Shown here one piece after another: positions 46,849 to 64,000 of a stretch of 64,000 nt of DNA. Source of the stretch: an uncultured bacterium. Lineage in GTDB: Bacteria; Bacillota_I; Bacilli_A; RFN20; CAG-826. A program made the translations under genes and the position numbers. Each line of letters begins with the position of its first letter. Within the stretch, counting starts at the first letter, position 1. The notes under the pieces are model-generated. The model saw only the letters and a list, made by a program, of their open reading frames with translations, was not told the origin of the DNA and searched no databases. The stretch covers positions 596,106 through 660,105 of the forward strand of contig CASDWE010000002.1 of assembly GCA_949284685.1 (NCBI GenBank), written 5' to 3'.

Positions 46849-46924
46849 GCCTACTTAGCTCAGTCGGTAGAGCTATCGGCTGTTAACCGATCGGTCGTGG
46901 GTTCGAGTCCCTCAGTAGGCGCCA
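46849..46924 (+). tRNA. tRNA-Asn, anticodon GUU
   Basis: The acceptor stem gcctact/agtaggc pairs perfectly. The anticodon arm is atcgg-ctGTTaa-ccgat and the T-loop is ttcgagt, with an encoded CCA. Confidence 0.75.
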
Positions 46925-46929
46925 ATTTT

Positions 46930-47006
46930 GGCCCGTTGGAGAAGTGGCTTAACTCATATGCCTTTCACGCATACACTCATGGGTTCGAATCCCGTACGGG
47001 TCACCA
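46930..47006 (+). tRNA. tRNA-Glu, anticodon UUC
   Basis: The acceptor stem ggcccgt/acgggtc has one G-U pair. The anticodon arm is tatgc-ctTTCac-gcata and the T-loop is ttcgaat, with an encoded CCA. Confidence 0.75.
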
Positions 47007-48237: not shown

Positions 48238-48249
48238 GGAGGAAAGGCT

Positions 48250-49410
48250 ATGAAAATCCATAATATTCATATACATTTTGATTTTGGAAACTGTCTTGTG
48301 ATAAGAAACGATACTCCATTGCTTGATTGTTATCAAATCCAAAAAGATAATGCTAATGCAGCATTAATTGATAAAATTGAAAAAGAAACAAGTGGTAAGT
48401 TTGTATATTTCTTAATTGATATAAATCAAGCAAAGAACGTAAAAAGAAATATTTATATTGGAAAAACAAACAGCTTGATGAATCGAATTATCAGTCATAG
48501 AAAGAATAAAGACTGGTGGAATACGATTATCGTATTTGGTAACAAGTATTTATCTTCAGATGACATAGATGCTATTGAAAAGCTTCTTATTGAGGAATAT
48601 GAAAATTCTGATCTTTATACAATCAAAAATGATGTGGGATCTAATGCTAAATTAAGTGAGCAACATAATGATTATAGAGAATACATTGTTGATATTATGG
48701 ATTTTCTATCTTATGGAGTTACTAAAACTGTCATTACTCCTGAGACTAAAACTAATCAAGTGGTTATTCAAACAGCTGCTCAACCATTATCTAATTCTAG
48801 TAGACAAGAATCATTTAAATTTTCAATGTTAGATATAAAACCTGGTGAGATACTTTCATTTATTAACAATGATAAAGTAACTTGCGAAGTTGTTGATGAT
48901 AAGAATGTTAAATATAAAGGGAAGTTATATTCTTTAAGTTCTTTGGCAAAAGAATTATTGAATACTAATGTTCCTAAAAGAGGAACTGATTATTTTTTAT
49001 ATAAAGGTAAGACTTTAAGAGTTTTAAGAGATGAAAAGAATGGAATACAAGTTTCTGATGTTGAAAAAACTAATAATTGGATTATTTCTTGTAATAAAGA
49101 GTTCTATGATTTAGATAATGCATTAAACGAAATGAAAATTATTGATTTTAAACAAAATGCTAATGTTGAAGCTGGTAGTAAAGTATATATTTATTCATCA
49201 GGTGAAGATAAAAAATTAGTTTATATAACTGAAGCTGTTGTAGTTAATAAACCAGAACAGACTATAAATGACGATAAATATATAAAGAATAAGAGTGGTT
49301 ATGCTGATTCTAATAGATACATGGAACTTAAGCTAGTAAAAAAACTCGAATCTGATAAATTATCATTATCTGATTTAAAGAAAAATGGACTTAGAGGTAA
49401 CTTGCAATGA
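48250..49410 (+). CDS. GIY-YIG nuclease-family protein with a C-terminal extension (DUF4357-like), tentative
   Basis: FVYFLIDIN...NIYIGKTNSLMNRIISHRKN fits the GIY...YIG...R...H spacing. There is a GGGAGG RBS. Confidence 0.5.
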   Translation: MKIHNIHIHFDFGNCLVIRNDTPLLDCYQIQKDNANAALIDKIEKETSGKFVYFLIDINQAKNVKRNIYIGKTNSLMNRIISHRKNKDWWNTIIVFGNKYLSSDDIDAIEKLLIEEYENSDLYTIKNDVGSNAKLSEQHNDYREYIVDIMDFLSYGVTKTVITPETKTNQVVIQTAAQPLSNSSRQESFKFSMLDIKPGEILSFINNDKVTCEVVDDKNVKYKGKLYSLSSLAKELLNTNVPKRGTDYFLYKGKTLRVLRDEKNGIQVSDVEKTNNWIISCNKEFYDLDNALNEMKIIDFKQNANVEAGSKVYIYSSGEDKKLVYITEAVVVNKPEQTINDDKYIKNKSGYADSNRYMELKLVKKLESDKLSLSDLKKNGLRGNLQ

Positions 49411-49481
49411 CCTTGTAGAGTCCCTGTTGAATTACAAGCATATATAGATTTTATTATTAAGTAGAAAGGTGGTGAGACGAT

Positions 49482-51149
49482 ATGTCTTTATTTAAAGAAA
49501 AACCGATATTATTTGAAACAATGTACTTCAAAGGTGGAGATTATGCAGGTGCTTTCTTTTTAAAGAATGTCGTTGACAATCTTTCTTATATTGAAACAAC
49601 TTTATCTTCGTTTGATTACTCAATTAATTCTATTGAAGATTTGTTTGATTTTTTGTGGTTGTCAGACTTTATAGAGATGGCAAATGAATTAGATATATTT
49701 AAAATCGATGAGGATATTAAAACAAGAATTCGTAATCTTGCTGATTCTATATATACTAATCCAAAAGAGTTTATAAAGTTTATTAATAATGATCCTGAAT
49801 TGGTTTTTACAAAACAAAATATTAATAAACCAATGTATTGGCATCTTTACTTACCGAGAATGTTAAATCTATGCTTTAACAAATATTCAACATCATTGAG
49901 ACAAAATGTTTTTGACTTCATAGAAGAAAATCTATATTTGAATGTATTATCATCATTTGATGAGTACCAAAAGTATTATCTAAAACATAAAGAATCATTT
50001 AAAAAGTTATTTAATTCTTTGAAAGAAACCAGACCATTTGATGACCAGATTTATAAAAACTTTTTATTAAAAAAGAATGATATTATAGATCTCGAATTCT
50101 TAAAAGAACAAGCCACATTTATATGTGAAAGAGCATATGATGAAATAATAAAAATGGGGTTAGATTCAGAAAATAAAGAAATTATGCAAGCAGTTAATTT
50201 TTTTGATGAATATTATGAACTTGCTCGTTTTTATAAACTTAAATGTGCAAATAAATATAGTGCCTATAAACCAAAAATAGAAAAAGTGTTAAATGATTAC
50301 ATTGTTAAGCATGGTCAACATATGGATTTTGGTCCTATAGATTTAAAACCAGCGCTAGATATTTTTGAAAAATCAGATGATGTATATAGATTTTTTCAAC
50401 TAACACATAGCATGAAAGATGATAAATACTATAACAATTTAAATAATGTATTTGAAACTACTCCGCCTGATGGTTTATCAGAATTATTTCCACCGAGAGG
50501 TAAAGTTGGTAGTGAGAATTATCCTATCTATAGACAGGATCATATTGATTTATATCTTTCGATTAATTCGAGTATTTTAAATATGATAATAGTTCATCCA
50601 AAGTTATCTGTTGATTTTTCGAATTATATCGGTGCAATCTGCTCTCATGTTCAAACTAACTATTTTGATGATCAAATCAATATTTTCAAAGAAATCGGTG
50701 GAAGTTATGAGATGATTAGTAATCTTTATATGCTTAGAACAAAGAAGCAGAGTGACTCTTTATTGTATAAAGCATTATGTAACGGATGCTGTGTAAATTT
50801 ATGTGGAACCATTGAAAAGATACTAAGAAATATAATAATTAAAGAAGAATCAGACAATGTTTACATTGATGAAAGTAAACTCACATTAGGTCAAATTTTT
50901 AAAAGAACGCATAATTTATCATCAATTTCAAATGGTATTAAATACTATTTAAAATACATATTAATGACTGATGAAGAGACTTCACCAATAAAAGAAAAAA
51001 GACCAGGTAGGGATATAAGAAATTGGCAGATGCATAACGCAAATGATAAGTATGATAAAACAAGTTATCAATTATGCGTTGAACTATTCTATTTAACTAT
51101 ATCTCTTGTAGTTGATTTAGTTGTAGTATCGTTAAAATACGACGAGTAG
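49482..51149 (+). CDS. Hypothetical protein with a C-terminal HEPN-like Rx4H motif
   Basis: The 555-aa product has a C-terminal ...RPGRDIRNWQMHNANDKYD... (R-x4-H) motif, similar to the motif in the 58195 gene. Confidence 0.4.
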   Translation: MSLFKEKPILFETMYFKGGDYAGAFFLKNVVDNLSYIETTLSSFDYSINSIEDLFDFLWLSDFIEMANELDIFKIDEDIKTRIRNLADSIYTNPKEFIKFINNDPELVFTKQNINKPMYWHLYLPRMLNLCFNKYSTSLRQNVFDFIEENLYLNVLSSFDEYQKYYLKHKESFKKLFNSLKETRPFDDQIYKNFLLKKNDIIDLEFLKEQATFICERAYDEIIKMGLDSENKEIMQAVNFFDEYYELARFYKLKCANKYSAYKPKIEKVLNDYIVKHGQHMDFGPIDLKPALDIFEKSDDVYRFFQLTHSMKDDKYYNNLNNVFETTPPDGLSELFPPRGKVGSENYPIYRQDHIDLYLSINSSILNMIIVHPKLSVDFSNYIGAICSHVQTNYFDDQINIFKEIGGSYEMISNLYMLRTKKQSDSLLYKALCNGCCVNLCGTIEKILRNIIIKEESDNVYIDESKLTLGQIFKRTHNLSSISNGIKYYLKYILMTDEETSPIKEKRPGRDIRNWQMHNANDKYDKTSYQLCVELFYLTISLVVDLVVVSLKYDE

Positions 51150-51184
51150 TCTTGCATTTGTTTTTTATATTAATGAGGTAGAAT

Positions 51185-51901
51185 ATGAAATCATTGAATG
51201 AAATAAAGTTATCTATAATAGATGAATTATCTAAGAACAAAGCGTATGATTTACCAAATATATGTTCTGCACTAGGGTTGGAAGATGGTACTGAAAACGA
51301 AGCCTATAATAGTAAAAGAATGTATGTGAGTAAACGAATTAATCATCTTTCTAAAGTTGAAATAAATAAATTACTATATGCAATGAAAGAAAATTTTGAT
51401 ATTGACCTATTACCAGAAGAAAACTGTAACTTTGATAATCTAAAAAAAGTCTCTGAAGAAATAAATAGTGACTATATAAATGTACAAATAGAATTAATGA
51501 AAAAATTTCAAAAAGAAAATCCAACAGAGGCTATTGGTAAAGCGAAGGAACTTTTAGAAACTATTTGTAAAACCATTTTAAAAAGATTAAATATAGAATT
51601 CGATGAATCATGTGAAATCCAAGCCTTAGCAAAAGCAACTTATAAAGCCTTGAAATTATCTCCAGATGAAGTAAAGGATGGCCCTTTATCTCAAACAATA
51701 AAACAAATATTAGGTGGATTGAATAGTATTTCAAGTGGTTTGGCTAGTTTGAGAAACTCTTATGGAAGTGGACATGGCAAGGACGAAAGTTATAAGGGGC
51801 TTCCAGAAAGATATTCAAAGTTAGCAATTGGAAGTGTATCTACACTAGTGGTGTTTCTATGGGAAACAATGCTATATCAAATTGATAAAAATCAAGAGTA
51901 A
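51185..51901 (+). CDS. Abi_C-like abortive-infection protein (HEPN superfamily), tentative
   Basis: The C-terminal ...SSGLASLRNSYGSGHGKD... fits the Abi_C pattern R-N-x5-H-G. There is a GAGG RBS. Confidence 0.5.
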   Translation: MKSLNEIKLSIIDELSKNKAYDLPNICSALGLEDGTENEAYNSKRMYVSKRINHLSKVEINKLLYAMKENFDIDLLPEENCNFDNLKKVSEEINSDYINVQIELMKKFQKENPTEAIGKAKELLETICKTILKRLNIEFDESCEIQALAKATYKALKLSPDEVKDGPLSQTIKQILGGLNSISSGLASLRNSYGSGHGKDESYKGLPERYSKLAIGSVSTLVVFLWETMLYQIDKNQE

Positions 51902-52132
51902 ATAATTGTAGTGATTTTATTCTTAAACTTGCATTTAGTAGAAACTAATGGAATAAGTATGTTAAAACCTGTCGTTTGGGTGAAAAAAATAACATTAGCA
52001 AATTTAAGGTCAAATAACTGTAGAGTTATTGTAGGTTCAGTAAATTGATAAAATAACTCTTTTGTTATATAATTATACCGATAATCTAAAGTACCAGAAA
52101 GTTGAGGAAGGGCTCAAAGGAGGTACTTGTGT

Positions 52133-52363
52133 ATGGATTATCAAAAAGCCATATTAGATAAAGAAGCAACAAGTATTAAACTTAGGTCCCTTAGAATCAA
52201 AGCTAATCTAACACATGATAGACTAGCTGCATTACTTCAACTAAACACACCTCGTGTGATTTATGATTGGGAATGTGCAAAGAAGATGCCTAATGTTGAA
52301 AACTTGTATAATCTGGCTCTAATATTTAATATGAAAATGGAGGATTTACTTGTGACCAAGTAG
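52133..52363 (+). CDS. XRE-family helix-turn-helix transcriptional regulator
   Basis: The HTH_3 core LRSLRIKANLTHDRLAALLQLNTPRVIYDWECAKKMPNVENLYNLALIF is present. An AAGGAGG RBS lies 9 nt upstream of the ATG at 52133. The track's 52127 start is a TTG. Confidence 0.7.
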   Translation: MDYQKAILDKEATSIKLRSLRIKANLTHDRLAALLQLNTPRVIYDWECAKKMPNVENLYNLALIFNMKMEDLLVTK

Positions 52364-52672
52364 ATCCTTCTTTTTTATTTTTGAACTATAGTACATTTTT
52401 TATTCCTGGATTTATTGTTAAAATAATAACAGTATCTATGAATATGTCCGTTGATATTGAAATAAATTTCAATAATGTGATATAATTATATAAAGATACA
52501 TATGCAGGTTCTGAAACAGTGGAGTAAGAACTTTACCTATATGAAATGTTGGAACAAATCCTATGGTTGGGATATACCATATGAGGAGTAAACCAATAGT
52601 TAAAAGCTAATTTTCAAGAGTGGTATTGCGTGTCTAAACAAAATAACATAATAAGAGGAAGAATGTTATTGA

Positions 52673-52708
52673 AGTGGCGATAGGCTAATACCTACCGTCA
52701 CTTTTTTG
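52673..52708 (+). terminator. Intrinsic terminator (attenuator-like) at the end of a ~370-nt leader, 7 nt upstream of the operon RBS
   Basis: agtggcgatagg-ctaata-cctaccgtcact forms a 12-bp stem with one G-U pair and one mismatch, followed by TTTTTTG. The AAGGAGG RBS and the ATG at 52731 follow. Confidence 0.5.
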
Positions 52709-52730: not shown

Positions 52731-53660
52731 ATGAAAAAGAAAAGCAAAGTCATCGGTAAAGACTATGATAAATTAGAAAAAGATAATAGATTCGATCAGA
52801 TTGATTATTATGGTCTTATTGCTAAAGATGGCAGAATTAAAATTGACACAAAGAGATATAAAAAATTCTTTACTATTCCTGATACTAAAATAGAAAGAAG
52901 ACAATCTGTTTATTACCTTCCAACAAAGCAACATAGATCCGATTATAAATGTAATTGGTTCAGAGATTTGTTAGCAGGTTATAAACAATTGTGGTTTAGA
53001 GAATATAAAAGTTTTATTGATAGCATTAAGACACCAAAGCAAGTAGAAGATAGTGCGAGATTAGATTATTTAGCTGATGGTGTTCTTGAGTACGATGAAG
53101 CTAATGCAAAAGCATTTATTGCAGGTATGAAAAGAAGTGCTGACTATAAAGTGATTATTAAATCTTTATATGCTCAATTCTTCCATCAAATGATGTCTAG
53201 CATTGATGCTTTATGTTTAAAGATGTTAACTGCCTGTGGTTATAAAGAAGAAGATTATACTAAGAAACAATTTGATATTTATATTCAAGGTTTGCAAGGT
53301 AATAATGCATTATCATTCAGACAATACGATAATTATCAATTATATGATAGAGCATTTACTGTTTGGAACTTCCTAAAGCATAACTCTCTTAGATCATATA
53401 AGATCTTGAAGCAATGGTATCCTAAAATGGTATGGGATCCAGAAGAGAAATATCAAAATGGTGAATCTGCACTTACTGTTGTTAAATTAGATGAGAAATT
53501 CATCTTAGATTGTATTGATAACTTACATTTATTCTTTGATGAATTATGTGCGAGAGCTTTTGGTGAAAATGCTGATGATGCACAATGGGATTATGATGAT
53601 TACTTCTTAGACGTCGTACAAGATGAAATAGATGTTATTGTTAATCCACTAGGTATATAG
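52731..53660 (+). CDS. Hypothetical protein, first gene of the helicase operon
   Basis: The 309-aa product has a strong AAGGAGG RBS and no recognisable catalytic motif. Confidence 0.45.
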   Translation: MKKKSKVIGKDYDKLEKDNRFDQIDYYGLIAKDGRIKIDTKRYKKFFTIPDTKIERRQSVYYLPTKQHRSDYKCNWFRDLLAGYKQLWFREYKSFIDSIKTPKQVEDSARLDYLADGVLEYDEANAKAFIAGMKRSADYKVIIKSLYAQFFHQMMSSIDALCLKMLTACGYKEEDYTKKQFDIYIQGLQGNNALSFRQYDNYQLYDRAFTVWNFLKHNSLRSYKILKQWYPKMVWDPEEKYQNGESALTVVKLDEKFILDCIDNLHLFFDELCARAFGENADDAQWDYDDYFLDVVQDEIDVIVNPLGI

Positions 53661-53672
53661 GAGGGCGGAAGA

Positions 53673-56600
53673 ATGGCATATTTATTTCTATCTTTTACTG
53701 ACAGATTGAATAATGGTTCTAATTTTAAAAGTGAATTATATAATCAATCTCTAACTGAACAATTTGAATATATCCAAAAAAGAATCCCTCTTGAAAGACA
53801 AGTTAGTAGCTTTAGATCATTTATAGAAGAATGCTTTACTACAGGAATGATGAAGAAATATTACATTTCTTGCCCTAACTTCTTAAGAGAAAAAGAATCT
53901 TCAAAAAGTGGTAAAGTGCAATATCTTGATAATGTAGTTGTACGTCCAGAATTAACTTTATCAATGAGAAAAGTGTTACCTGATAATCAAAACATAATTC
54001 TTATCGGTAAGATTGTAGAAGGTGGCAAACAAAAACATTTAGAGGTAAAAGGGATACAATTAATAGATTCCTCTATGTCTTCACCTAATGATATTGTTAT
54101 TTCTGCAGCTGCATGTAATTCATTTTCTGAAGAAAAAAGAGCAAGCATGTATGGTGGTACATTTGCTGTTAACATATGGTCGGTTCCAAATGTTCCTTAT
54201 GAAGATACTGTATTTACACCTAATTTTGTATATGAACTAATTCAATCATGCTGGACTGTATCTAAGCCAGAGCAAATTAGACAATCTTATGATATTTGGA
54301 ATAAATACATTGAATTTAGAAAGTACTATCTTCAAGAACAATCAAAGCGTAATTTTAAATTAGATAGAGCTATGTTTGTTGAAGCATATGCCGTCAATAG
54401 AAAAGACTACAAAAAGAATGCTTCAATTTATGATGAATATCTACTTGATGGACGAGATGAGTTTAAATGGGGAGATATGATTGTTTTATCTGAAAAGATA
54501 GAAGATGCTGAAGAATTCCCACTTATTAGATTAGATATTGAAAGAAATAGAAAAGCTTTTAATGAAGCTAAAGTTACAAAACGTGGAAAATTAGTTAATG
54601 AAGAAGAACGTAAGATTCGTTCATTATCTAGTGATAATGTATTTATTACTGCTATTGATCCTGAAAGTAAATCACAGCATAACGATAGACAGGTTACTTT
54701 TGGTGAATTATTAAATGCTGGATATGCATTAGGTGATAGATTTAAAATTGTTTCTTATGATATCGAACCTACTGAGCATTTAGAAGAATTAGATCAAGTA
54801 TATACAAAAGATATTGATAACTCATATAAAAATATAGATGCTAAGTTTGAAAAGATTATTAAAGAAGAAGTAAAACAAGCAGTTACTTTATATGAAAAAG
54901 AATTAAATAAACAAGCTAAAGAAAGAATTGATTCTTATAAAAATGAACTAGATAGTTCTTTAGAACAAGATGTTTTAGAAAATAAAGATAAAAATATTAT
55001 TAGTTTAATTGATAAAAAGAAAAAAGAAATTGAAGCTAATGTTAAAAAGAATAATAAACAAGATAAAAAAGAAAAAGATAATGAATATGCATTAAGAATA
55101 AAAGCGTTAATTGAAGATGAAATATCTAAAATTGATGTCAAGTCATATTATGTTGAAAGAAATTCTAAATTATTACAAGATAATGCGAATAAGATTGAAG
55201 TTGAACTAAAGAGATTATTGGCACAGTATGAAGTAAAAAAGAATTCTGAAATTACTAACAAATATAAAGATGATGTTAGAAATGAAAAGATTAAATCAAA
55301 AGAAGAACTTGATGCTAAGTTAAAGTCTGATAAAGAAAAAGCAATTGAAGAAGAAACAATTATTAGATTCTCGTTATATTTTAGATTAGGTGATTCTAAT
55401 AATTTTATTTCTGATAAGCAAAAAAAGGTTGTAGATTCTTGTGAATATATTGTTTATGATAATCGTGCTGAAAAGGCAAAGATATCAAGACAAGAAGCAG
55501 CTTTAGATAATTTCTATTCTGGATATGTTAAGAATCCATATCTTTCAACATATCTTTTTAATCCTGAAGAATTAGATACTGTTAAAGCTGAACCTAGCGA
55601 TTGGATATGGTATTTAGATTCTCTTAATGAAAAGCAAAAAGAGGCTGTAAGAAAAGCAGTTTCAAGTAACGGTATATTCTTACTTCAAGGTCCTCCAGGA
55701 ACTGGTAAAACACAAGTAATTGCTGAAACAGTAGCTCAGTTAATTAAAAAAGGTAAGAAGGTATTAATTTCATCAGAAACTCATAAGGCAATTGATAATG
55801 TATTTGAAAGATTACCTAAGATTGCTGAAATTGTACCTATTAGATTAATTCCTTCTAATAATGATAAAAAGAAAGAAAACGAATATGATCCAAAATTCCT
55901 AGTAGATAATTTCTATTTAAATATTTCTTCTAATATGAAGAAAGCTGTTAATAGATATAAGAATTTTGAAAAGAACAAAATAGAATTTGCTGAAAACTTT
56001 GATAAATTAAAGTTGGCAAAAGCCAAAATAGAAAAATCTCAAAAGGTTTTAGATAAGGCTAACGAAGAAATCAAAAAGTTTGAAGACAATGCTAAAGACA
56101 TTAATTCTAAGATATCAGTATTAAATGATAAAAAGGACTTGGTCAGAATTGATATTGATATCTTAAGAAGAACTAAACGTCATATTGAAAATGATAATTT
56201 GAGACCTGATGAAGATGTAAAGGTTGACTTGATTGTTGATGTAAGAAAGAAACTAGAACCTTTATTTGAAAAAGATGTTTATATCGATGATGATTTAGGC
56301 CAATTATTAAAAAATATTAATTTAATTAAAAATGATGAAATAGAACGTGAGTTAGCAGTCATTAATCCTGAATCCAATAAAACTATTCTTGAAGTTAAGA
56401 AAAATGATTTAAAGGCTGAATTAAATAAATATGTTGATGAATTGGGAGACATTATTAATCCTAATAATGAAGAAAAAGTTGAAGAAATTAAAAATGAATT
56501 AAGAAAGGTTTTAAAAGAACTTAAGGCTGAATCAGTTGACATATCTTTAAGCGATTTAAAACTTAATAAGATTTTTAATTATTCATATTTAGTTGCTAAT

Positions 56601-58202
56601 ATTTCTCTAATTCCAGAAGTTATTAGAACTGTAAAAGATAGAATTATTGAGATTAAATCTTCAACGATAGAAGTTCTTAATAAAGAATTACGTACTATTG
56701 AAGATAAACAAGCAGAACTAGATAAAGAAATAGATTCATTAAAGCAACAAATAAAAGTAATTAATGAAAATATTATTGATATTCAAGAAAGAAATGATGT
56801 TAAAGATATTCAAGAAGCTAAATACAAGCTTGAGAATGATTTAATAAAATTCTTTAAAGATTTTGAAATTGCTGAACCATATAGAGATGTAGATGAAGGT
56901 CTAAAGATTATTAAACGTAAATGGTCTGAGCTTGAAGATGATTTCCAAGCGAAAGAACAAGAAAATAGAGAAAAAATACCTATGTATGAAAAGATCGCAA
57001 ATTACATCACTAGTGAAGATGTAATTGAAGAAGATAGAAAGGTATTTACTAAAGACTTGTTTGAAAATGCTAATGTATTTGGTATTACATGTACATCTAA
57101 CGATAGATTCAGTGGAAGAAATGTTGATGCATTATCTGAATATAATATCGATGAGATTGATATTAAGTCTGTAGGTATTGATGTAGTTATTATTGACGAA
57201 GTTTCTAAATCAAGTTTTATAGATTTATTGATACCTATTCTTTATGGTAAAACAGTTATTCTAGTTGGAGACCATAGACAATTACCTCCAATGTATGAAT
57301 TCTCAAAATTAAGAGATGATGATTTTGAAGGATTAGATGAGACAATTATTAATAAAGAAATTAATAAAGAGTTCACTAAATTGTATGAAGAGTGTTTCTT
57401 CAAAACTCTATTTGAAAGAATACCAGATAGTTATAAAACTATGTTAGTTCAACAATATAGATGTCATGAACATATTATGAATGTATTTAACCATTTCTAT
57501 AAAGGCGAATTAAAACTAGGTTTTGCAGGTCAAAACAATAATAAACATCATAATGTTAAATTACTATCAAATGGTAGAAATATTATCGAACCAGATAAAC
57601 ATATTTATTTTGTTGATTGTAAGCAAAATGAAACGCATGAAGCTGATTCAACATCTATGTACAATACTGGTGAAGCTAGAGTTGTAGTTGAATTAATCAG
57701 AAAATTAAATACATACTTTAAATCGCATCCTGAACTTGAAAAGTTAAGCATTGGTGTTATTTGTACTTACGGAGACCAAGCTAGAAAAGTAAAAGAATTA
57801 CTTAAGAGTGAAAAGGTTAAAACTGATGCATTTAAAACTGACGTTGAAAAGATGATAGTCTCTACAGTCGATGATTTCCAAGGCGATGAAAGAGATATTA
57901 TTATCTTGACTACAGTTAGAAATCCTGAGAATCCAAAAAGAAGTAATCCTGGATTCATCTTGGCTTATCAAAGAATTAATGTTGCCTTATCTAGAGCTAG
58001 AAGAATGCTTGTTATGGTAGGTAATAGAAAATACCTAGAAGAAAAAGGTGTGATAGATCTACCAGATGTCTATGGTCGTGTTGGTAAAGAGCAACGAAAC
58101 TTTAGAGTTTATGAAGAAATCCTATCTACTATTGAACGATATGGTAAGGTCATTGAGGATATTGATGTATTAGATGATAAGGAGGCGAGAATAAATGGAT
58201 AA
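53673..58202 (+). CDS. Giant Upf1/DNA2-like superfamily-1B helicase (1509 aa) with an unassigned ~640-aa N-terminus and a ~500-aa Lys/Glu coiled-coil insertion
   Basis: Motif I is LLQGPPGTGKTQ and motif II is VVIIDEVSKSSF. VGDHRQLPPM is motif III and QYRCHEHI is motif IV. VSTVDDFQGDERDIIILTTVR and YQRINVALSRARRMLVMVGN are motifs V and VI, the AAA_11/AAA_12 architecture. There is a GGAGGG RBS. Confidence 0.8.
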   Translation: MAYLFLSFTDRLNNGSNFKSELYNQSLTEQFEYIQKRIPLERQVSSFRSFIEECFTTGMMKKYYISCPNFLREKESSKSGKVQYLDNVVVRPELTLSMRKVLPDNQNIILIGKIVEGGKQKHLEVKGIQLIDSSMSSPNDIVISAAACNSFSEEKRASMYGGTFAVNIWSVPNVPYEDTVFTPNFVYELIQSCWTVSKPEQIRQSYDIWNKYIEFRKYYLQEQSKRNFKLDRAMFVEAYAVNRKDYKKNASIYDEYLLDGRDEFKWGDMIVLSEKIEDAEEFPLIRLDIERNRKAFNEAKVTKRGKLVNEEERKIRSLSSDNVFITAIDPESKSQHNDRQVTFGELLNAGYALGDRFKIVSYDIEPTEHLEELDQVYTKDIDNSYKNIDAKFEKIIKEEVKQAVTLYEKELNKQAKERIDSYKNELDSSLEQDVLENKDKNIISLIDKKKKEIEANVKKNNKQDKKEKDNEYALRIKALIEDEISKIDVKSYYVERNSKLLQDNANKIEVELKRLLAQYEVKKNSEITNKYKDDVRNEKIKSKEELDAKLKSDKEKAIEEETIIRFSLYFRLGDSNNFISDKQKKVVDSCEYIVYDNRAEKAKISRQEAALDNFYSGYVKNPYLSTYLFNPEELDTVKAEPSDWIWYLDSLNEKQKEAVRKAVSSNGIFLLQGPPGTGKTQVIAETVAQLIKKGKKVLISSETHKAIDNVFERLPKIAEIVPIRLIPSNNDKKKENEYDPKFLVDNFYLNISSNMKKAVNRYKNFEKNKIEFAENFDKLKLAKAKIEKSQKVLDKANEEIKKFEDNAKDINSKISVLNDKKDLVRIDIDILRRTKRHIENDNLRPDEDVKVDLIVDVRKKLEPLFEKDVYIDDDLGQLLKNINLIKNDEIERELAVINPESNKTILEVKKNDLKAELNKYVDELGDIINPNNEEKVEEIKNELRKVLKELKAESVDISLSDLKLNKIFNYSYLVANISLIPEVIRTVKDRIIEIKSSTIEVLNKELRTIEDKQAELDKEIDSLKQQIKVINENIIDIQERNDVKDIQEAKYKLENDLIKFFKDFEIAEPYRDVDEGLKIIKRKWSELEDDFQAKEQENREKIPMYEKIANYITSEDVIEEDRKVFTKDLFENANVFGITCTSNDRFSGRNVDALSEYNIDEIDIKSVGIDVVIIDEVSKSSFIDLLIPILYGKTVILVGDHRQLPPMYEFSKLRDDDFEGLDETIINKEINKEFTKLYEECFFKTLFERIPDSYKTMLVQQYRCHEHIMNVFNHFYKGELKLGFAGQNNNKHHNVKLLSNGRNIIEPDKHIYFVDCKQNETHEADSTSMYNTGEARVVVELIRKLNTYFKSHPELEKLSIGVICTYGDQARKVKELLKSEKVKTDAFKTDVEKMIVSTVDDFQGDERDIIILTTVRNPENPKRSNPGFILAYQRINVALSRARRMLVMVGNRKYLEEKGVIDLPDVYGRVGKEQRNFRVYEEILSTIERYGKVIEDIDVLDDKEARING

Positions 58203-60327
58203 GTTTAAATTAGAAACTTCTATGCAATTTCCATTCTTTAAATTGAATGAACTTGCTATATATTCAGAAGTTAAAAAGCCTAGTGGTGTAGCCTATATTT
58301 TACTAGTACTTATCAGTGAGTCAAAAAATAAAAATGATAGATTATCTAAAGTGCTAGAGAATTTTGGTATACCTAAATCTTTACATTATATTTTTGCTGA
58401 TAATGTTCAATACCTTATGAATCAGGGAATACTAGAAGAATTTAACTTTTACAAAACTGAATTTGATAGTTATCTTATAGGATCATTTCAATTTACTTCA
58501 AAAGGTAAAAAAATATTTGCAGAAGAATCTATTCCTACAGGTGTTAATAAAGAATTAAAGGTTGCAGTCTTTTATGATATTGCAATGAATGCATTATCTT
58601 TAAAAATGGATGTTGATTTAGATCCTAAACCATTAATGGACTGTGCAATTACACCTGAATTTATGAATTCATTTAAATGTGAAAAGAATGTAGAAAATTT
58701 CTTAAACCTTCAAAAAGGTAAAGGAATAGGCATAAAGAAAGAAGAAATAATTACTAGCGTAGAGTTATTAAATCAAGAAAATTGGATTGGAAAATATGAT
58801 TGTGACATGAATATCAAAGGCGATGATATAGAAATCAAATTTGATGAAGCGTTACTACAAAAATTCTTTGATGCTAATTACAATCAAGAAATGGTTAATT
58901 TAGCCATATCATATAAAAACAAGTTCAAGTTTAAATCTTCTTTTAAAGATAATCTAAAACTAAGTAGTTATGGTTTTGATAGAATTGCTGGAATTATTAT
59001 TCCAAAAGAAATTGATGATGTGTTAAAGCAAAAAAATCAATTATTACTTACAAAAGGTAATTATAAAACTTCAAATGGTTATATGGTTACTAGTGCTGAT
59101 TCACTTGCTGGATTTGATGATACAATTGAATTCATACAAGTTGATATGCATGATTCGATTTATGCATATATTCCAGGCAACTTTAATTTTAATAATAGTA
59201 TATTTGGAACTATTACAATTCCTTTGGCTGTTAAAATTAAACTAACTGATGAGGAATTGAAAAATGTTATTAGACCATATGTACTTTCTTTATCTTCATA
59301 TAGCGAAGATAACTTTAGAGAGCTTGTTAAGGTAACAAATATCACTGATGACTTAAAGTTAGCAAAAGAGATTATTGAAGGTTATGTTAATAAAAATGCA
59401 GAAAGCAATATTGTCTTGTTAAATGAAATGAAGCCATATGCAATATCTAATGGTGGTATTTCAAATATCTATAGAGAGCTATTAGAAAAGAACTATAACA
59501 ATTATATGGATAATTTAACTGAAGACAATCTTGAAACAGCATTAAAGATAACTGCTTCAGTTCCTAAATTCCTAAATATTCCAAATAAGGACGTTTTATC
59601 TAAAATCTTTAAGAATGTAAAGGCTAGAAGTGAATTGAAGATTTATGAAACTTTAGTAAATAAAGGATTTGATAAATCACTAGTTGTTCTATATGTTAAC
59701 CCAGTAAATGAAATACTTAAGTTGAGAGATTCTGAAGAGAAGAGTCTTATTGATTTAATTAATTATGATGATGCTTTGGAAGAAATGAAACGCATAACAA
59801 ATATAAGTGATTATAAGAGTTATTTGTATGATGAAGAAAAGATAAATCATAATGAATTTAAAACAAATTATAACAAAGCATTCAATCTTCAAAAGAATAT
59901 TTTAGTGTTTAAAAATGGCAATGAAGCATTATTTGCAAATTATGATGGTTTTATGAAGCTGTTCTCTACAATTAATGATGATATTAATATGGTTGAGTCA
60001 GCTCTTAAAAATCCTAATAATCTGAAACTAGATTTAATTGAAAAGAAAATATCTAGTGGTGAATATCAATTTGTATTTGTTAATCTATCTGCAAAATTAG
60101 AAACAATTCTTAAAAACAAGTATAAATTAGAAGGTAAATTATCTGACATGCTAAATGATGCAAGATCTAATGGTATAATCGATAAAAAGATTGTCAGTGA
60201 TTTGCATGATTTTAGAGATAACAGAAATGCAAATGTTCATCCTGAAGATAGAACGTCTAACTATGATGCAAATGATCTCAGAAGATGGGCAAAAGAAATC
60301 TTTGATTTGGAGGTGAAAAAGAAATGA
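58195..60327 (+). CDS. Hypothetical 710-aa protein with a C-terminal HEPN-like (DUF4145-type) Rx4H motif
   Basis: The C-terminal ...LHDFRDNRNANVHPEDRTSNYD... (R-x4-H) is present. There is an AAGGAGG RBS. It overlaps the helicase gene by 8 nt. Confidence 0.45.
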   Translation: MDKFKLETSMQFPFFKLNELAIYSEVKKPSGVAYILLVLISESKNKNDRLSKVLENFGIPKSLHYIFADNVQYLMNQGILEEFNFYKTEFDSYLIGSFQFTSKGKKIFAEESIPTGVNKELKVAVFYDIAMNALSLKMDVDLDPKPLMDCAITPEFMNSFKCEKNVENFLNLQKGKGIGIKKEEIITSVELLNQENWIGKYDCDMNIKGDDIEIKFDEALLQKFFDANYNQEMVNLAISYKNKFKFKSSFKDNLKLSSYGFDRIAGIIIPKEIDDVLKQKNQLLLTKGNYKTSNGYMVTSADSLAGFDDTIEFIQVDMHDSIYAYIPGNFNFNNSIFGTITIPLAVKIKLTDEELKNVIRPYVLSLSSYSEDNFRELVKVTNITDDLKLAKEIIEGYVNKNAESNIVLLNEMKPYAISNGGISNIYRELLEKNYNNYMDNLTEDNLETALKITASVPKFLNIPNKDVLSKIFKNVKARSELKIYETLVNKGFDKSLVVLYVNPVNEILKLRDSEEKSLIDLINYDDALEEMKRITNISDYKSYLYDEEKINHNEFKTNYNKAFNLQKNILVFKNGNEALFANYDGFMKLFSTINDDINMVESALKNPNNLKLDLIEKKISSGEYQFVFVNLSAKLETILKNKYKLEGKLSDMLNDARSNGIIDKKIVSDLHDFRDNRNANVHPEDRTSNYDANDLRRWAKEIFDLEVKKK

Positions 60328-61412
60328 GCCAGCAAGTAACTGTTGATTACCAAGGTGTATCTATTCAAGTGCAAGCTAAATGTGATACAGCTGTTCATTC
60401 GCTATGTCAAATAGATAAAGTGCTTGATAGAATACATAAAACAGCAGATAAGCTAGAAACATCAAAAGTAAAAGAATATGAAGCTTATTTGCAAAAATCC
60501 AAGGAAACAATCAAAGAAAAGATTGAAGCGTTTAAGAAGACTCTAGAAAAATATAAAGAAGCTAGGGCTTATTCGGTTAATAATCATCAACCAGATTATC
60601 AACAATTCATTAATTTTACTAATAAAGTTCAAGCTGAATCACAAGAATTAATTAGAACAGTAAATGAGTTAACTGGTTCTAAACTTGCAGTAATTGATCA
60701 GATGATTGATGAAGGATTATTAAATGCTGGACAAGAAACTACTCAAGCTATGCTTGATAAATTACATGGTGTTATTTCGATTTCAGATGATGTTTTATTA
60801 AAGATTAATAGTATAGAAGATGTTTCATTAAGAGAATTAGCTTATAGAGAAATTCTTAAAAATGATAAACTTAGTTTTGATGAAGCAATTACTAAAGCAC
60901 AAGAAGAATATGATGTTCTCTTAGGTAAACAAACAAAGAAAGTTATTCAAGAATATAAAGAAGAACTTACTGCTAAGGGTATTACTGTTGAAGAATTAGA
61001 TAAAGCTAAATCTATTGATGAAGCTAATGCTATTGCTAATGAAGCAATTACTGATGAAACAGTAAGAAAAGAAACTTTAAAAGTTATTATTAAAGCAATC
61101 AAAGATAGAGGATTCATTGTTGATACAAAGAAGAATCTTAAAATCGATAAAGAAAGAAATATTGTTAAGCTTGTTGCATTAAAGGCATCTGGACAAATGG
61201 CTGAATTTGAAATTCAACTTAATGGTAAGTTTATGTACCACTTTGATGAATATGAAGGTCATGCATGTAAGAAAGATATAGAACCATTCTTAGAAGATTT
61301 AAAGAATATCTACGATATCAATATTCTTCATGAAGAAGTAACGTGGGAAAATCCAGATAAGATTCAAACTCAAAAATATCAATACATAAACAAAAATAAG
61401 GGTACTAATTAG
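60324..61412 (+). CDS. Hypothetical coiled-coil protein (362 aa), possible partner of the downstream ClpB-like ATPase
   Basis: There is a GGAGG RBS and a 4-nt overlap with the upstream gene. It has no catalytic motif. Confidence 0.4.
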   Translation: MSQQVTVDYQGVSIQVQAKCDTAVHSLCQIDKVLDRIHKTADKLETSKVKEYEAYLQKSKETIKEKIEAFKKTLEKYKEARAYSVNNHQPDYQQFINFTNKVQAESQELIRTVNELTGSKLAVIDQMIDEGLLNAGQETTQAMLDKLHGVISISDDVLLKINSIEDVSLRELAYREILKNDKLSFDEAITKAQEEYDVLLGKQTKKVIQEYKEELTAKGITVEELDKAKSIDEANAIANEAITDETVRKETLKVIIKAIKDRGFIVDTKKNLKIDKERNIVKLVALKASGQMAEFEIQLNGKFMYHFDEYEGHACKKDIEPFLEDLKNIYDINILHEEVTWENPDKIQTQKYQYINKNKGTN

Positions 61413-61423
61413 GAGGTAAACAT

Positions 61424-63238
61424 ATGTCTTTACAAAATAGTTTTAATAAAATCAGAAGAAATGCTGGAATTAAAAAATGTGTCATGATTGATGGCAATGT
61501 TGGTGACGTTTATTTAAATGAAAAAAATAATATCGTCACATTAAGAGAATATCTTGAAGCAATGTTCAAAGATATGGATTATCAAGACATTGTTTACTGG
61601 GATAGAGTTGAAGGTGCAACTGGTGCAATTGATAAGCTTACTTTAACAGATGAAGTTGAAGTAGAAGGTGATGCATATGATTTAGGTGATGAAGAAGAAA
61701 CACCTAAAGCACAACAAGGCTTATTTAAATCACCAGCTGAAATCTTAAATGTTGTTTATAAGAATGTAATTGATAAAAAGAAAAAAGTAGCTTTTATTAT
61801 CAATTGGTCTGAATATTTATTCAGTGTTAATGGGTTAAGCGATGATGAAAGACAAAATATTACTTTATTAGGTAAAGCTCTAAAGGATAGAAAAGTAGAT
61901 TATTTAAACACTGACTGCAACGAAAGTGTTGTTGTCATTATTTTAAATAAAGCGTCTGGATTACCATTATCTTTCTATCAAGGAAATCCTGAAGTTGAAA
62001 TTGTAACATTACAAAAACCAGATAGAGAAGAAAGAAAACAAATGATTCAAAAGATAGAAGATTCATTTGAAGTTAGATTAAAATCTGGTACTAGCTCATT
62101 GCTTGATAATGAAAATATCGATTGTATTGATATGCTTGAAGATTTCACTAATCGTGAGATTATTCAATTATCAAGAATGTCTAGAAAAGAAGATAAGATG
62201 ACTTTTGATAAGTTATTCTATTTATTCAAATATGGTGAAAAAGAAAATCCATGGGAAAAATTAGAACAATCTAGAGTTAAGAATATCAAAAAAGAATTAT
62301 CTGACAGAGTTATAGGTCAAGAAGAAGCAATTGATAAAATTGAAAAGACTGTTGTTAAAGCATATATGGGTTTAACAGGCCTTCATAAAACTTCATCTAG
62401 ATCAATGCCAAAAGGTGTATTCTTCTTTGTTGGTCCTACTGGTGTAGGTAAAACTGAGCTTTCAAAGGCTTTAGCTAAATTCTTATTTGGTGATGAACAA
62501 GCTTGTATTAGATTTGATATGTCTGAATATGCTCAAGAGAATAGTGATCAAAAATTAATTGGTGCAGCTCCTGGATATGTTGGATATGAAGAAGGTGGCC
62601 AATTAACTAATGCAATTAAAGAACATCCATTCTCAGTTGTATTATTTGATGAAATTGAAAAGGCTGCAAAACCTAATCCACGTATTCTAGATATTTTCTT
62701 ACAAATTCTAGAAGATGGTCGTTTAACAGATTCTAAAGGTGAAACTGTATACTTCAGCGACACAATTATAGTATTCACATCTAACTTGGGTGCTAACCAA
62801 GTTCAAGCATCATCTGATAAAGAAGGTGTAGCAAAAGAATTCATTAAGATTGTAAAAGATTACTTTGATAATGAATTAAAGAGACCAGAATTATTAGGAC
62901 GTATCGGATACAATAATATCGTTCCATTTAATTTCATTCAAGATAGAGATTTCCAAGTTAAGATTTGTAAGAACAAACTAAAACCAGTTATCAGGGGAAT
63001 AGAAGAAAAATATAAACTTGAATTGGAATTTGAGAAAGAATTGGAAGCTATCGAATATATCTTAAAAGCTGTAGATTCATCTAAAGGTGGTCGTGATATT
63101 TTAAATGCTATCAATGATAGATTATTAGATCCACTAGCAATGTTCTTATTTGAAAATAAAGATGAATTACGTTCTTTAAAAGGAAGCAGAATTATTACAA
63201 AGGTAACAAAAGATGGATTCAGCTTTGACTTCGATTAA
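61424..63238 (+). CDS. ClpA/ClpB-D2-like AAA+ ATPase with an unassigned ~300-aa N-terminal domain
   Basis: RVIGQEEAI...FFFVGPTGVGKTELSKALA...LIGAAPGYVGYEEGGQLT...VVLFDEIEKAAKPNPRILDIFLQILEDGRLTDSKG...VFTSN is the canonical ClpB second nucleotide-binding domain, with sensor and D2-small domain. There is an AGGAGG RBS. Confidence 0.75.
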   Translation: MSLQNSFNKIRRNAGIKKCVMIDGNVGDVYLNEKNNIVTLREYLEAMFKDMDYQDIVYWDRVEGATGAIDKLTLTDEVEVEGDAYDLGDEEETPKAQQGLFKSPAEILNVVYKNVIDKKKKVAFIINWSEYLFSVNGLSDDERQNITLLGKALKDRKVDYLNTDCNESVVVIILNKASGLPLSFYQGNPEVEIVTLQKPDREERKQMIQKIEDSFEVRLKSGTSSLLDNENIDCIDMLEDFTNREIIQLSRMSRKEDKMTFDKLFYLFKYGEKENPWEKLEQSRVKNIKKELSDRVIGQEEAIDKIEKTVVKAYMGLTGLHKTSSRSMPKGVFFFVGPTGVGKTELSKALAKFLFGDEQACIRFDMSEYAQENSDQKLIGAAPGYVGYEEGGQLTNAIKEHPFSVVLFDEIEKAAKPNPRILDIFLQILEDGRLTDSKGETVYFSDTIIVFTSNLGANQVQASSDKEGVAKEFIKIVKDYFDNELKRPELLGRIGYNNIVPFNFIQDRDFQVKICKNKLKPVIRGIEEKYKLELEFEKELEAIEYILKAVDSSKGGRDILNAINDRLLDPLAMFLFENKDELRSLKGSRIITKVTKDGFSFDFD

Positions 63239-63767
63239 GTTTAATGTAGCATATATAAAATTATGTACTAAAACTGAAGGTCCATATAAGAGATGCTGTA
63301 TTTGGTTTCAAGGATGTAACATTAATTGTAGAGGATGTTGTAATAACGATTTACAACCATTAGTTCCAAATCATATAGTTACATTAAAAGAACTTATCGA
63401 TATAGTTAAAGAAGCTAAAGATAAGTTTGATATAGAAGGTATAACTCTTAGTGGTGGTGAACCTTCTTTACAAACTGGTTTAAAATTCTTCAATAATGAA
63501 ATTCATAAATTAGGATTAGGAATTATTATGTTTTCAGGAAAAAATAAACAACTTCTTGACAAAGAACTAGTTGAATCTGTTGATTTATTAATAGATGGTC
63601 CATTTATTGAAGAACAACTTGATGATAAAAGAGTTTTATTAGGTTCTAAAAATAAACGATTATCTTTTATTACTGATAGATATAAAAAAGAAGAAAATTA
63701 TTTCAATAATCCTATAGCTATAGAAGAAGTAACAGCTGAGGATTATATCTTCATAAATGGAGACTGA
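63213..63767 (+). CDS. Small radical-SAM / 4Fe-4S activase-like protein (NrdG/QueE-like)
   Basis: The cluster motif FQGCNINCRGC is CX3CX2C. ITLSGGEP (SAM-binding) is present. The 184-aa size is typical of NrdG-type activases. Confidence 0.7.
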   Translation: MDSALTSIKFNVAYIKLCTKTEGPYKRCCIWFQGCNINCRGCCNNDLQPLVPNHIVTLKELIDIVKEAKDKFDIEGITLSGGEPSLQTGLKFFNNEIHKLGLGIIMFSGKNKQLLDKELVESVDLLIDGPFIEEQLDDKRVLLGSKNKRLSFITDRYKKEENYFNNPIAIEEVTAEDYIFINGD

Positions 63768-63769
63768 TT

Positions 63770-64000
63770 ATGGATAAAAAGAGAATAGAAAGTGAAATGA
63801 GAGAATTAGAACTTAAAATTCATTATCATTTCAATGACATATCTTGGCTTGCTAAAGCTATGGGTTCTATAAAAGTACCTGTTCCAGGTCAAGGAAAGAA
63901 TGGTTCTGAATATTCTAATGAAGGCTTGGCTACTGTTGGTGATACTATATTAAAATCAGTTATTGCTGATAAGTTTTATAGAGAAGGAATAAGAACCAAA
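63770..64000 (+). CDS. Divergent RNase III-like protein, N-terminal 77 aa; the gene continues beyond the window
   Basis: LELKIHYHFNDISWLAKAMGS...SEYSNEGLATVGDTILKSVIADKFYREG aligns with the RNase III N-terminal LxxxLGYxFxDxxLLxxALTHxS...NERLEFLGDAxLxxVVxxxLY. The ERLEFLGD signature has diverged to EGLATVGD. The ATG is 2 nt after the radical-SAM stop. Confidence 0.6.
   Translation, partial: MDKKRIESEMRELELKIHYHFNDISWLAKAMGSIKVPVPGQGKNGSEYSNEGLATVGDTILKSVIADKFYREGIRTK

Follow-up and report, generated by a model that had tools for sequence, protein, structure and literature searches.

A conserved cassette of helicase, RNase, unfoldase and radical-SAM genes is a candidate conflict system in Bacillota and on proteobacterial plasmids

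Seven co-directional, tightly coupled genes on the plus strand (g1 to g7) fill positions 52731-64000 of a 64,000-nucleotide (nt) stretch of DNA from an uncultured bacterium of the CAG-826 lineage (GenBank assembly GCA_949284685.1, contig CASDWE010000002.1, positions 596,106 to 660,105 of the forward strand), to which we refer as the window. We consider it probable, with some reserve, that this block is a member of a widespread, unnamed five-gene cassette (g2-g6) that acts in conflicts with phages or plasmids. Our confidence that the five genes form a conserved functional cassette is high, and we are fairly confident that its function, judged from genomic context and domain content, is defence. 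An RNA-targeting mechanism seems to us about evenly balanced between likely and unlikely, and our confidence in a role for the module formed by the unfoldase and the radical S-adenosylmethionine (radical-SAM) protein is low.

Seven coupled genes contain a conserved core of five

The list of open reading frames (ORFs) of the window confirms the layout proposed by the initial annotation, which had been made from the sequence alone: seven same-strand genes separated by 12, −8, −4, 11, −26 and 2 nt from g1 to g7. In order, they encode a 309-amino-acid (aa) accessory protein (g1, 52731-53660), a 1,509-aa UPF1-like superfamily 1 (SF1) helicase (g2, 53673-58202), a 710-aa predicted effector with a C-terminal HEPN ribonuclease (RNase) domain (g3, 58195-60327), a 362-aa helical protein with a small alpha/beta C-terminal domain (g4, 60324-61412), a 604-aa AAA+ unfoldase similar to the D2 module of ClpB and ClpC (g5, 61424-63238), a 184-aa small radical-SAM protein similar to PflA and NrdG (g6, 63213-63767), and an RNase III-domain protein cut by the window end after its first 77 codons (g7, 63770-64000). 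Strong GGAGG-type ribosome-binding sites, which had been ascribed to all seven genes, precede g1 through g5; g6 (AAAGG) and g7 (TGGAGA) have weaker ones. Eight metagenome contigs encode an identical copy of the g6 protein and show that g7 is 166 aa long. The operon terminates with g7 just beyond the window, where, on the metagenome contigs, about 650 nt separate it from the next gene, an unrelated one of AAA_14/DUF4143 type; the additional components that had been anticipated downstream are absent.

Scanning one genome per species revealed 116 genomes with a relative of g5, and 80 loci were fetched from these. Of the 80 loci, 62 contain all five core genes in an unchanged order, with identities to the window proteins as low as 36% (g2), 22% (g3), 30% (g4), 63% (g5) and 39% (g6); a contig edge truncates most of the 18 incomplete loci. 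Retention of this order in 62 of 80 genomes, each from a different species, means that the seven-gene arrangement is not a chance run of ORFs. The intact catalytic motifs of the HEPN, radical-SAM, helicase and AAA+ proteins further support a functional cassette. Co-conservation of the block across genomes, which remained to be established when the operon was first noticed, thus holds for g2-g6, but not for g1, detected in 19 of the 80 loci, or for an RNase III-like gene, detected in 10. Both are swappable, and the pairing of radical-SAM protein and RNase III, first put forward as the distinguishing combination, does not define the cassette. Because the slots 5′ of the helicase gene and 3′ of g6 vary, we regard g1 and g7 as accessories and not as core.

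The hosts are mainly Bacillota of guts, rumens and digesters (RF39-type Bacilli, Acholeplasmataceae and Clostridia), with a few bins labelled Bacteroidales, Helicobacteraceae, Spirochaetaceae or Planctomycetota. The spread over phyla is patchy, with g5 at 63 to 100% identity, and one close homologue of g3 (P0232) alone occurs on 58 contigs. The g4 family serves well to trace the cassette: it has 407 representatives at 50% identity (E ≤ 1e−3) among 1.84 billion proteins, and its C-terminal domain also matches plasmids of Acinetobacter, Polaromonas, Moellerella, Photobacterium and Leisingera. Four loci of this second lineage were inspected (L087:2161-11880, L088:1930-11841, L089:2930-12883 and L090:3070-12777). 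Their gene order is helicase, PIN_4 protein, g4 homologue, AAA_2 ATPase and Fer4_12 radical-SAM protein; the helicase matches AAA_11/AAA_12 and the Mokosh protein MkoA (9e−96), and the second protein, of 700 to 820 aa, carries PIN_4 at its C terminus. Carriers of PIN-type cassettes include Acinetobacter pNDM1_010055, Polaromonas pPNAP02, and Moellerella and Photobacterium plasmids, in all of which the product names are generic. Replacement of HEPN by PIN on a conserved scaffold is as expected of an exchangeable RNase effector in a conflict system.

Two loci have interrupted reading frames. At L020:2187-9922 (labelled Malacoplasma), g2 and g3 are fragmented into several ORFs under genetic code 11, and at L022:2270-6772, g2 is divided into pieces of 932 and 582 aa. 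Decay or assembly errors could account for both, as could a different genetic code for L020.

The block could instead consist of two or three independent neighbours, namely a helicase-RNase pair of the Mokosh/CnuHE kind, a trio of g4, AAA+ and radical-SAM genes, and stand-alone accessory nucleases, that merely share a defence island and a promoter. In at least four loci (L045:2396-4763, L049:8866-12461, L051:2898-6495 and L057:9200-12365), the trio occurs and the available upstream sequence shows neither a helicase nor a HEPN gene, and at L035:10115-12362 only a remnant of g4 stands beside g5 and g6. L016 has the full cassette except g6, and the same metagenome-assembled genome contains the trio locus L049, a hint that the trio may be able to work alone or in trans. 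Moreover, an operon of another type (L128, described below) has its own set of AAA ATPase, DUF2997 protein and Fer4_12 radical-SAM protein, and the comparable CnuH/CnuE pairs of CoCoNuT systems also exist with other partners (PMC11090510). Since the trio is found alone, the helicase/RNase half and the trio half may be separable. However, 62 of 80 Bacillota-type loci keep the five genes in the same order, in overlapping or near-touching frames, and so do the proteobacterial copies, at about 20-40% identity for every protein. Such persistent linkage despite divergence is not expected of unrelated neighbours, and we consider independent neighbours an unlikely account of the block.

Domain content of the core proteins

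The protein family libraries searched were PADLOC v2.0.0 (2023 copy), NCBIfam 2026 and Pfam. Matches to Pfam and to PDB sequences uphold the domain assignments with which we started (helicase, Rx4H motif, ClpB-D2-like ATPase, NrdG-like radical-SAM protein and RNase III).

The helicase g2 matches AAA_11/AAA_12, and its closest solved relatives are IGHMBP2, Sen1, Dna2 and Upf1. Between its Walker A motif, at residue 673, and its Walker B motif, at 1173, lies a charged insertion of about 335 aa (segment 815-1150), around which the AAA_11 match is divided into two stretches. The N-terminal 650 aa have no family assignment, no kinase family is among the Pfam matches of g2 at E ≤ 0.01, and the NCBIfam helicase matches (PLuB, ProA and Hhe) all fall far under their cut-offs.

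In g3, an N-terminal region resembling the N termini of the PIN-variant protein and of the Mokosh protein MkoB is followed by a helical middle part and a C-terminal HEPN domain. The C terminus matches DUF4145 (Pfam) and carries R677-x4-H682; the R-N-x3-H motif is invariant across the aligned g3 homologues, and g3 has the four-helix fold with the Rx4-6H motif that characterizes HEPN proteins. The N terminus of g3 aligns to that of the PIN protein (hhalign E 3.6e−05, probability 71%), which matches the N terminus of PADLOC MkoB at 1e−05. No PADLOC or NCBIfam model matches g3, neither Pfam nor PADLOC shows a phospholipase D (PLD) nuclease in it, and a g3 profile gave nothing useful against PDB sequences. 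Structure models of the proteins were built on shallow alignments of database matches at 62-96% identity, and residues 1-250 of g3 are modelled with low confidence.

The ATPase g5 matches AAA_2 (PF07724, 2.6e−51) and ClpB_D2-small (PF10431, 1.8e−03) in Pfam, as well as ClpE, ClpC and ClpB at about 1e−58 to 1e−55. Pattern searches located Walker A (GPTGVGKT), Walker B (VLFDEI), the GYVG pore loop, the TSN sensor-1, RPEL and GGR, and did not find a ClpP-docking tripeptide. With these features g5 qualifies as an Hsp100/Clp D2-type AAA+ unfoldase; because it scores under every NCBIfam equivalog cut-off, it is not ClpB, ClpA or ClpV itself. Its N-terminal domain (residues 1-280) is novel, as had been proposed: it is family-specific, has no P-loop, and matches no Pfam family and no PDB sequence. 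A profile comparison of this domain with D2 returned only trivial overlap of the input sequences.

The radical-SAM protein g6 matches Fer4_12 (8.6e−23) and Radical_SAM in Pfam and PflA in the PDB (1.3e−11). Its C35, C39 and C42 (CX3CX2C) and GGEP are invariant in 51 sequences. Like PflA and NrdG, g6 is small and has an EGP..R loop, then an N-terminal CX3CX2C followed by N, and GGEP. It differs from them in scoring about half of the curated cut-offs or less (NCBIfam NrdG, 2e−17 and 63.5 bits against 126.1; PflA, 8e−15 and 54.9 bits against 231.75), and in that the cassette occurs in strict aerobes. Activases of the PflA/NrdG type act on a protein substrate, removing a hydrogen from one of its glycines; neither the operon nor its surroundings encode a glycyl-radical enzyme. 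PADLOC pVip matches g6 in the cluster region only (7.7e−07). Because its NCBIfam viperin score is far below the cut-off (22.3 bits against 180), g6 is not a viperin.

First described as a coiled-coil protein, g4 is indeed mostly a helical bundle in its AlphaFold2 model (mean predicted local distance difference test score, pLDDT, 77.6), to which the model adds a small alpha/beta C-terminal domain (approximately residues 262-342). In this domain, an invariant G290 sits at the tip of a predicted beta-hairpin within the motif [KR]-x-[SA]-G-x-x-A-x-F, and G312-x-x-C315 is invariant too; the residues common to the HEPN and PIN lineages are G290, A293, F295, G301, Y305, F307, Y310, G312, C315 and D318. 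A weak match to DUF2997 (hhalign E 0.0015, probability 17%) aligns the G-x-x-C motif, and there is a weak fold match to the N-domain of spermine synthase and to S-adenosylmethionine decarboxylase. No Pfam, PADLOC or NCBIfam model matches g4, a profile search of PDB sequences gave nothing useful, and the longer relatives of g4 (450-656 aa) have no Pfam domain that accounts for the C-terminal domain.

Genomic context points to defence

In the window, the operon has an AbiJ-like neighbour, and known defence genes recur in the flanks of the cassette elsewhere, in keeping with the defence-like setting first perceived. Our flank survey comprised 147 non-redundant proteins beside the cassette in other genomes, which include PDC-S01, WYL, HTH_VI, mad2, RmrA, C5 methylases and AAA_14-DUF4143. 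Directly downstream of the Acinetobacter copy lies a pair encoding a viperin-like radical-SAM protein and a nucleotide kinase, and the Moellerella copy is near ArdA and an integrase. A defence function is also supported by the varying nucleases that fill the 3′ slot after g6.

Outside immunity, the block could be a selfish module for addiction or stress, or an operon for RNA quality control, that acts on host RNA-protein complexes. UPF1-like helicases and ClpB-type ATPases are known in housekeeping roles, carriage on plasmids fits addiction, and many of the flanking genes are metabolic. These points have to be set against the patchy, horizontally spread distribution of the cassette, no copy of which turned up when complete E. 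coli genomes were searched at the DNA level with the g4-g6 segment from Moellerella, and against the HEPN/PIN swap, the varying 3′ nucleases and the adjacent known defence genes; nor did any NCBIfam housekeeping model match above its cut-off. We therefore judge a non-immune module of this kind to be improbable.

Comparison with catalogued systems

The block is assigned to no named system by PADLOC v2.0.0, NCBIfam 2026 or Pfam, and our literature searches found no description of the gene combination or of Mokosh paired with a radical-SAM protein. All matches to named defence proteins cover generic NTPase cores only and lie far below the curated cut-offs. The initial annotation, which recognized no catalogued system in the combination, is correct in this respect; the helicase and the RNase with its putative winged helix-turn-helix (wHTH)-like region and its HEPN domain, however, match a described pair, CnuH/CnuE, and resemble another, MkoA/MkoB.

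In CoCoNuT systems (Bell et al. 2024, eLife, PMC11090510), CnuH is a UPF1-like helicase with a coiled-coil insertion after Walker A, and CnuE runs from a wHTH-like region at its N terminus through a helical linker to a nuclease at its C terminus, which is HEPN with RxxxxH or, in other types, PLD or Vsr. The CnuE frame follows that of CnuH, often with overlap; the two are joined to McrBC homologues and are predicted to target RNA (PMC11090510). With its insertion between Walker A (673) and Walker B (1173), g2 agrees with CnuH, and together g2 and g3 are consistent with the CnuH/CnuE description, g3 being a putative counterpart of CnuE; in both cases the pair is combined with an AAA+-class motor and with coiled-coil partners. 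In contrast to CoCoNuT, the operon lacks the McrB GTPase (CnuB) and McrC (CnuC), the NCBIfam McrB match of g5 being negligible (E 0.0043, 15.8 bits against a cut-off of 637). It has instead g4, the ClpB-like ATPase and the radical-SAM protein, partners that are not mentioned in PMC11090510.

Mokosh (Millman et al. 2022, preprint 10.1101/2022.05.11.491447) couples a COG1112 helicase to a PLD nuclease; in type I, the helicase gene also encodes a Ser/Thr kinase domain. The helicase g2 is of the same COG1112/UPF1 type and matches PADLOC MkoA at 3.1e−93, in the helicase core only (profile positions 678-1100 of 1112), and the hypothesis of phage-RNA recognition is alike for both. The cassette differs in having neither PLD nuclease nor kinase domain, and in having HEPN or PIN plus three extra conserved genes. 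Dodola and PDC-M37 share with it a ClpB-like AAA_2 ATPase in a defence-system setting; g5 matches PADLOC DolB at 1.1e−20 and PDC-M37B at 1e−33, in the AAA_2 core only (g5 residues of about 205-462), and none of its neighbours matches DolA or PDC-M37A.

Radical-SAM enzymes are known from other antiviral systems. One is essential in Ophion (preprint 10.1101/2025.09.30.679545), and HXS is reported to use a protein effector matured by such an enzyme (PMC13128918). Apart from g6 not being a viperin, its partners are unlike those of Ophion, a PHP protein and a phosphoribosyltransferase (PRTase), and unlike those of HXS. Ophion and the vWA-MoxR systems were considered as possible relatives and rejected; they contain radical-SAM enzymes and are unrelated to the cassette.

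That the block is a plain member of Mokosh type I, CoCoNuT type II or III, Dodola or PDC-M37 would be in line with the MkoA, DolB and PDC-M37B matches and with the CnuH/CnuE-like architecture. It is nevertheless very unlikely, given that the defining partners of each system are missing (PLD and kinase, McrB and McrC, DolA, and PDC-M37A, respectively) and that g3 and g4 match no model of these systems. Because of these missing partners, and because the library and literature searches name no system, we file the cassette outside every named system; by its sequence, it would be a variant of the helicase-nuclease defence class.

As for a replication or maintenance module of a prophage or an integrative and conjugative element (ICE), which had been named as the outcome that would overturn a defence reading, the seven IMG/VR contigs with a g5 relative (L136-L142; one, of 53.7 kb, is 100% identical to the window g5) and the proteobacterial copies near integrases on conjugative plasmids give it hardly any weight against the lack of matches to the g4 marker in the GenBank phage collection, the absence of phage structural, terminase, integrase and replication families from the commonest Pfam families among the 147 flanking proteins, the housekeeping genes upstream in the window and the variation of flanks between genomes. 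The IMG/VR contigs are either true prophages or misclassified defence islands.

A proposed mechanism and the points against it

We propose that the helicase g2 would survey invader RNA or RNA-DNA intermediates, as proposed for MkoA/MkoB and CnuH/CnuE, and license the tethered RNase, of HEPN or PIN type, whose gene comes next and overlaps that of the helicase. The RNase would then degrade RNA and thereby halt infection, probably with sacrifice of the cell. The g4-g5-g6 trio would serve as a conserved control or activation module, in which g6 would most likely act on a protein substrate, with g4 as the best candidate on account of its hairpin glycine and G-x-x-C motif, and the unfoldase g5 would remodel or thread a component of the complex. 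Modification of g4 or another subunit by g6, with remodelling of the complex by g5 as an arming or resetting step, is a tentative scheme that we ourselves find doubtful. By analogy with viperins, the product of g6 may also be a small molecule.

A more specific version of this scheme is a long shot: g6 would place a radical, or a covalent modification derived from one, on one of the system's proteins, with G290 or the G-x-x-C315 of g4 as the best candidate site, and g5 would present or reset the modified protein, arming the helicase-tethered RNase. If true, this would be the first immune system governed by a protein-directed activase of the glycyl-radical type, and it would give the DUF2997-like domain a function. 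Such a domain recurs beside a small radical-SAM gene in the second operon type (L128). The recurrence of an AAA+ ATPase, a DUF2997-like element and a small activase-like radical-SAM protein in two unrelated operons argues that the three constitute a functional unit.

Several points weigh against our interpretation. Defence is deduced from context and domain content, many housekeeping and metabolic genes are found in the flanks next to the defence genes, and the trio stands without a detected helicase or HEPN gene upstream in L045, L049, L051 and L057. The MkoA match of g2 is restricted to the helicase core, and the link between g3 and MkoB is a chain of two weak matches (E 1e−05 and an hhalign probability of 71%). 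As to the radical-SAM protein, its substrate is a candidate held with low confidence. The glycyl-radical loop has the signature R-V-x-G-[YF], and the g4 hairpin lacks its G-[YF], the residue after the glycine not being aromatic. Fold searches with g4 did not return glycyl-radical proteins, to which g4 has no significant match, and the presence of the cassette in the strict aerobes Acinetobacter and Polaromonas argues against an oxygen-labile glycyl radical.

A regulator and a structured leader RNA precede the operon

The XRE regulator and the terminated leader reported upstream of g1 are both present, all on the plus strand. The XRE-family helix-turn-helix (HTH) regulator (78 aa, 52127-52363; Pfam HTH_3, 2.6e−06) is encoded by a gene with its own promoter and its own terminator-like hairpin (52339-52370, a 14-pair stem and then a T-run). 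Upstream of the operon promoter lies an operator-like imperfect palindrome, TGAACTATAGTACA (52382-52395), which forms a conserved block in an alignment of 11 loci and is perfect, as TGTACCnnnGGTACA, in L021 and L072; from its sequence, it would be the binding site of the XRE protein. The operon promoter is of the sigma-70 type (52457-52486), with TTGAAA, an 18-nt spacer and a TG-extended TATAAT (11 of 12 hexamer matches), and its position is conserved in the alignment of loci.

The promoter is followed by a leader of about 215 nt (52493-52707) that is much better conserved than the neighbouring proteins. It comprises a structured RNA core of seven helices supported by covariation (52493-52636) and an intrinsic-terminator-like hairpin directly before the ribosome-binding site of g1 (52674-52707, GTGGCGATAGG pairing with CCTACCGTCAC, plus TTTTTT). 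The sequence of the terminator stem varies among loci with its pairing maintained, and the hairpin is present in the minimum-free-energy fold. RNAalifold on 10 sequences found compensatory changes at 17 of 42 pairs, and a covariance model (R1) matches 55 loci with E values of 1e−23 to 1e−35. A metagenome scan added 45 leader loci, and 43 distinct sequences were used for a larger alignment, in which 98.6% of cells are paired and both sides have changed in 16 of 36 pairs. This alignment was fitted to the model and so favours the structure; independent support comes from slid controls, which are only 34-44% paired, and from MAFFT/RNAalifold. Shuffled controls reached the pairing of the leader in 0 of 500 cases.

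Besides the window, the leader is present in L010, L013, L014, L017-L019, L021, L022, L024, L064, L072 and L091-L135. Among the 45 metagenome loci, an XRE gene lies upstream of it in 40 and g1 downstream in 43. An Rfam search with the leader found no credible family. A leader peptide was considered and ruled out, as the short ORF within the leader is not conserved in the alignment. We suggest that expression would be gated twice, by the XRE repressor on the operator-like palindrome and then by the leader RNA that ends in a terminator before g1. Either the leader acts as a riboswitch-like element or transcription attenuator, and is as such a candidate new class of cis-regulatory RNA, or it is a stable RNA component that works with g1.

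Variable slots and exchange of modules

The accessory g1 contains a WNFLKHN motif that is invariant in its alignment, and matches nothing in Pfam, PADLOC, NCBIfam or the PDB. The 5′ slot before the helicase gene has two main forms, a g1-type protein (16 loci) and a 175-aa protein (16 loci, half of those with an identifiable 5′ gene; for example, L041:1505-2029 and L007:1616-2137). The 175-aa protein combines a nearly invariant HTH at its N terminus with a coiled coil and stands in place of the XRE gene, the leader RNA and g1; its gene abuts the helicase gene, with gaps of 0 to 27 nt in 15 of the 16 loci. The leader model matches no locus of this type. The 175-aa protein is probably an alternative regulator or adaptor.

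The 3′ slot after g6 holds an RNase III-like gene in 9 loci, a DEDDh exonuclease in 7, a trypsin-leucine-rich-repeat protein in 1, a family of large proteins in 4 (the two that were scanned are a NERD-UvrD protein and a DEAD+UvrD helicase), or nothing linked. The full g7 protein (L001:10558-11058) has a borderline though consistent RNase III domain, with a match to Ribonuclease_3 in Pfam at 3e−06; its PF00636 score of 28.4 bits is above the cut-off of 27, and its PF14622 score of 26.5 bits is under the cut-off of 35. By eye, the first acidic residue of the signature and the GD are kept, and the second glutamate is replaced by alanine. The double-stranded RNA-binding domain of classical RNase III enzymes was not detected in the 166 aa of g7.

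In L128, L107, L102 and L122, the front end of XRE gene, leader RNA and g1 precedes a different operon. At L128:168-9514, this operon encodes three uncharacterized proteins (388, 139 and 124 aa), a classical, IetA-like AAA ATPase of 533 aa, two further uncharacterized proteins (727 and 247 aa), a DUF2997 protein of 70 aa, a Fer4_12 radical-SAM protein of 190 aa and, as its last gene, an RNase III-like protein. It is probably another uncatalogued system. The L128 copy of g1 is 89% identical to that of the window and its RNase III 96% identical to g7, whereas the radical-SAM protein is only 30% identical to g6. The high identity of g1 and RNase III indicates that the genes at the front and back ends have recently been exchanged as modules.

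The surrounding island

The operon lies in a tRNA-adjacent island, as first described. The island begins after tRNA-Asn and tRNA-Glu (46849-47006), upstream of which are the housekeeping genes for prolyl-tRNA synthetase (ProRS), diacylglycerol (DAG) kinase and guanylate kinase. In the stretch from the tRNAs to the XRE gene (47275-51901) are genes for a DUF2971 protein (47275-48237) and an AbiJ-like protein with an Abi_C (HEPN) C terminus (51185-51901; PADLOC AbiJ, 4.5e−15); two proteins of 386 and 555 aa with no assigned function are encoded there as well. These four are probably separate defence genes. A search with the upstream housekeeping genes for strains with and without the island matched only the source genome itself.

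Implications

If the cassette is a defence system, it would add a layer consisting of an Hsp100-type unfoldase and an activase-like radical-SAM protein to helicase-nuclease modules of the Mokosh/CoCoNuT type. To our knowledge, neither an unfoldase nor a glycyl-radical-activase-like activity has a known role in such systems. Anaerobes of gut and rumen commonly carry the cassette, and because its PIN version is carried on plasmids of cultivable Proteobacteria (such as pNDM1_010055), the system is experimentally tractable. The near-identical front and back modules in unrelated operons are a clear example of modular exchange in defence islands, and the leader RNA that appears to gate the operon is a candidate for a new class of cis-regulatory RNA for immune genes.

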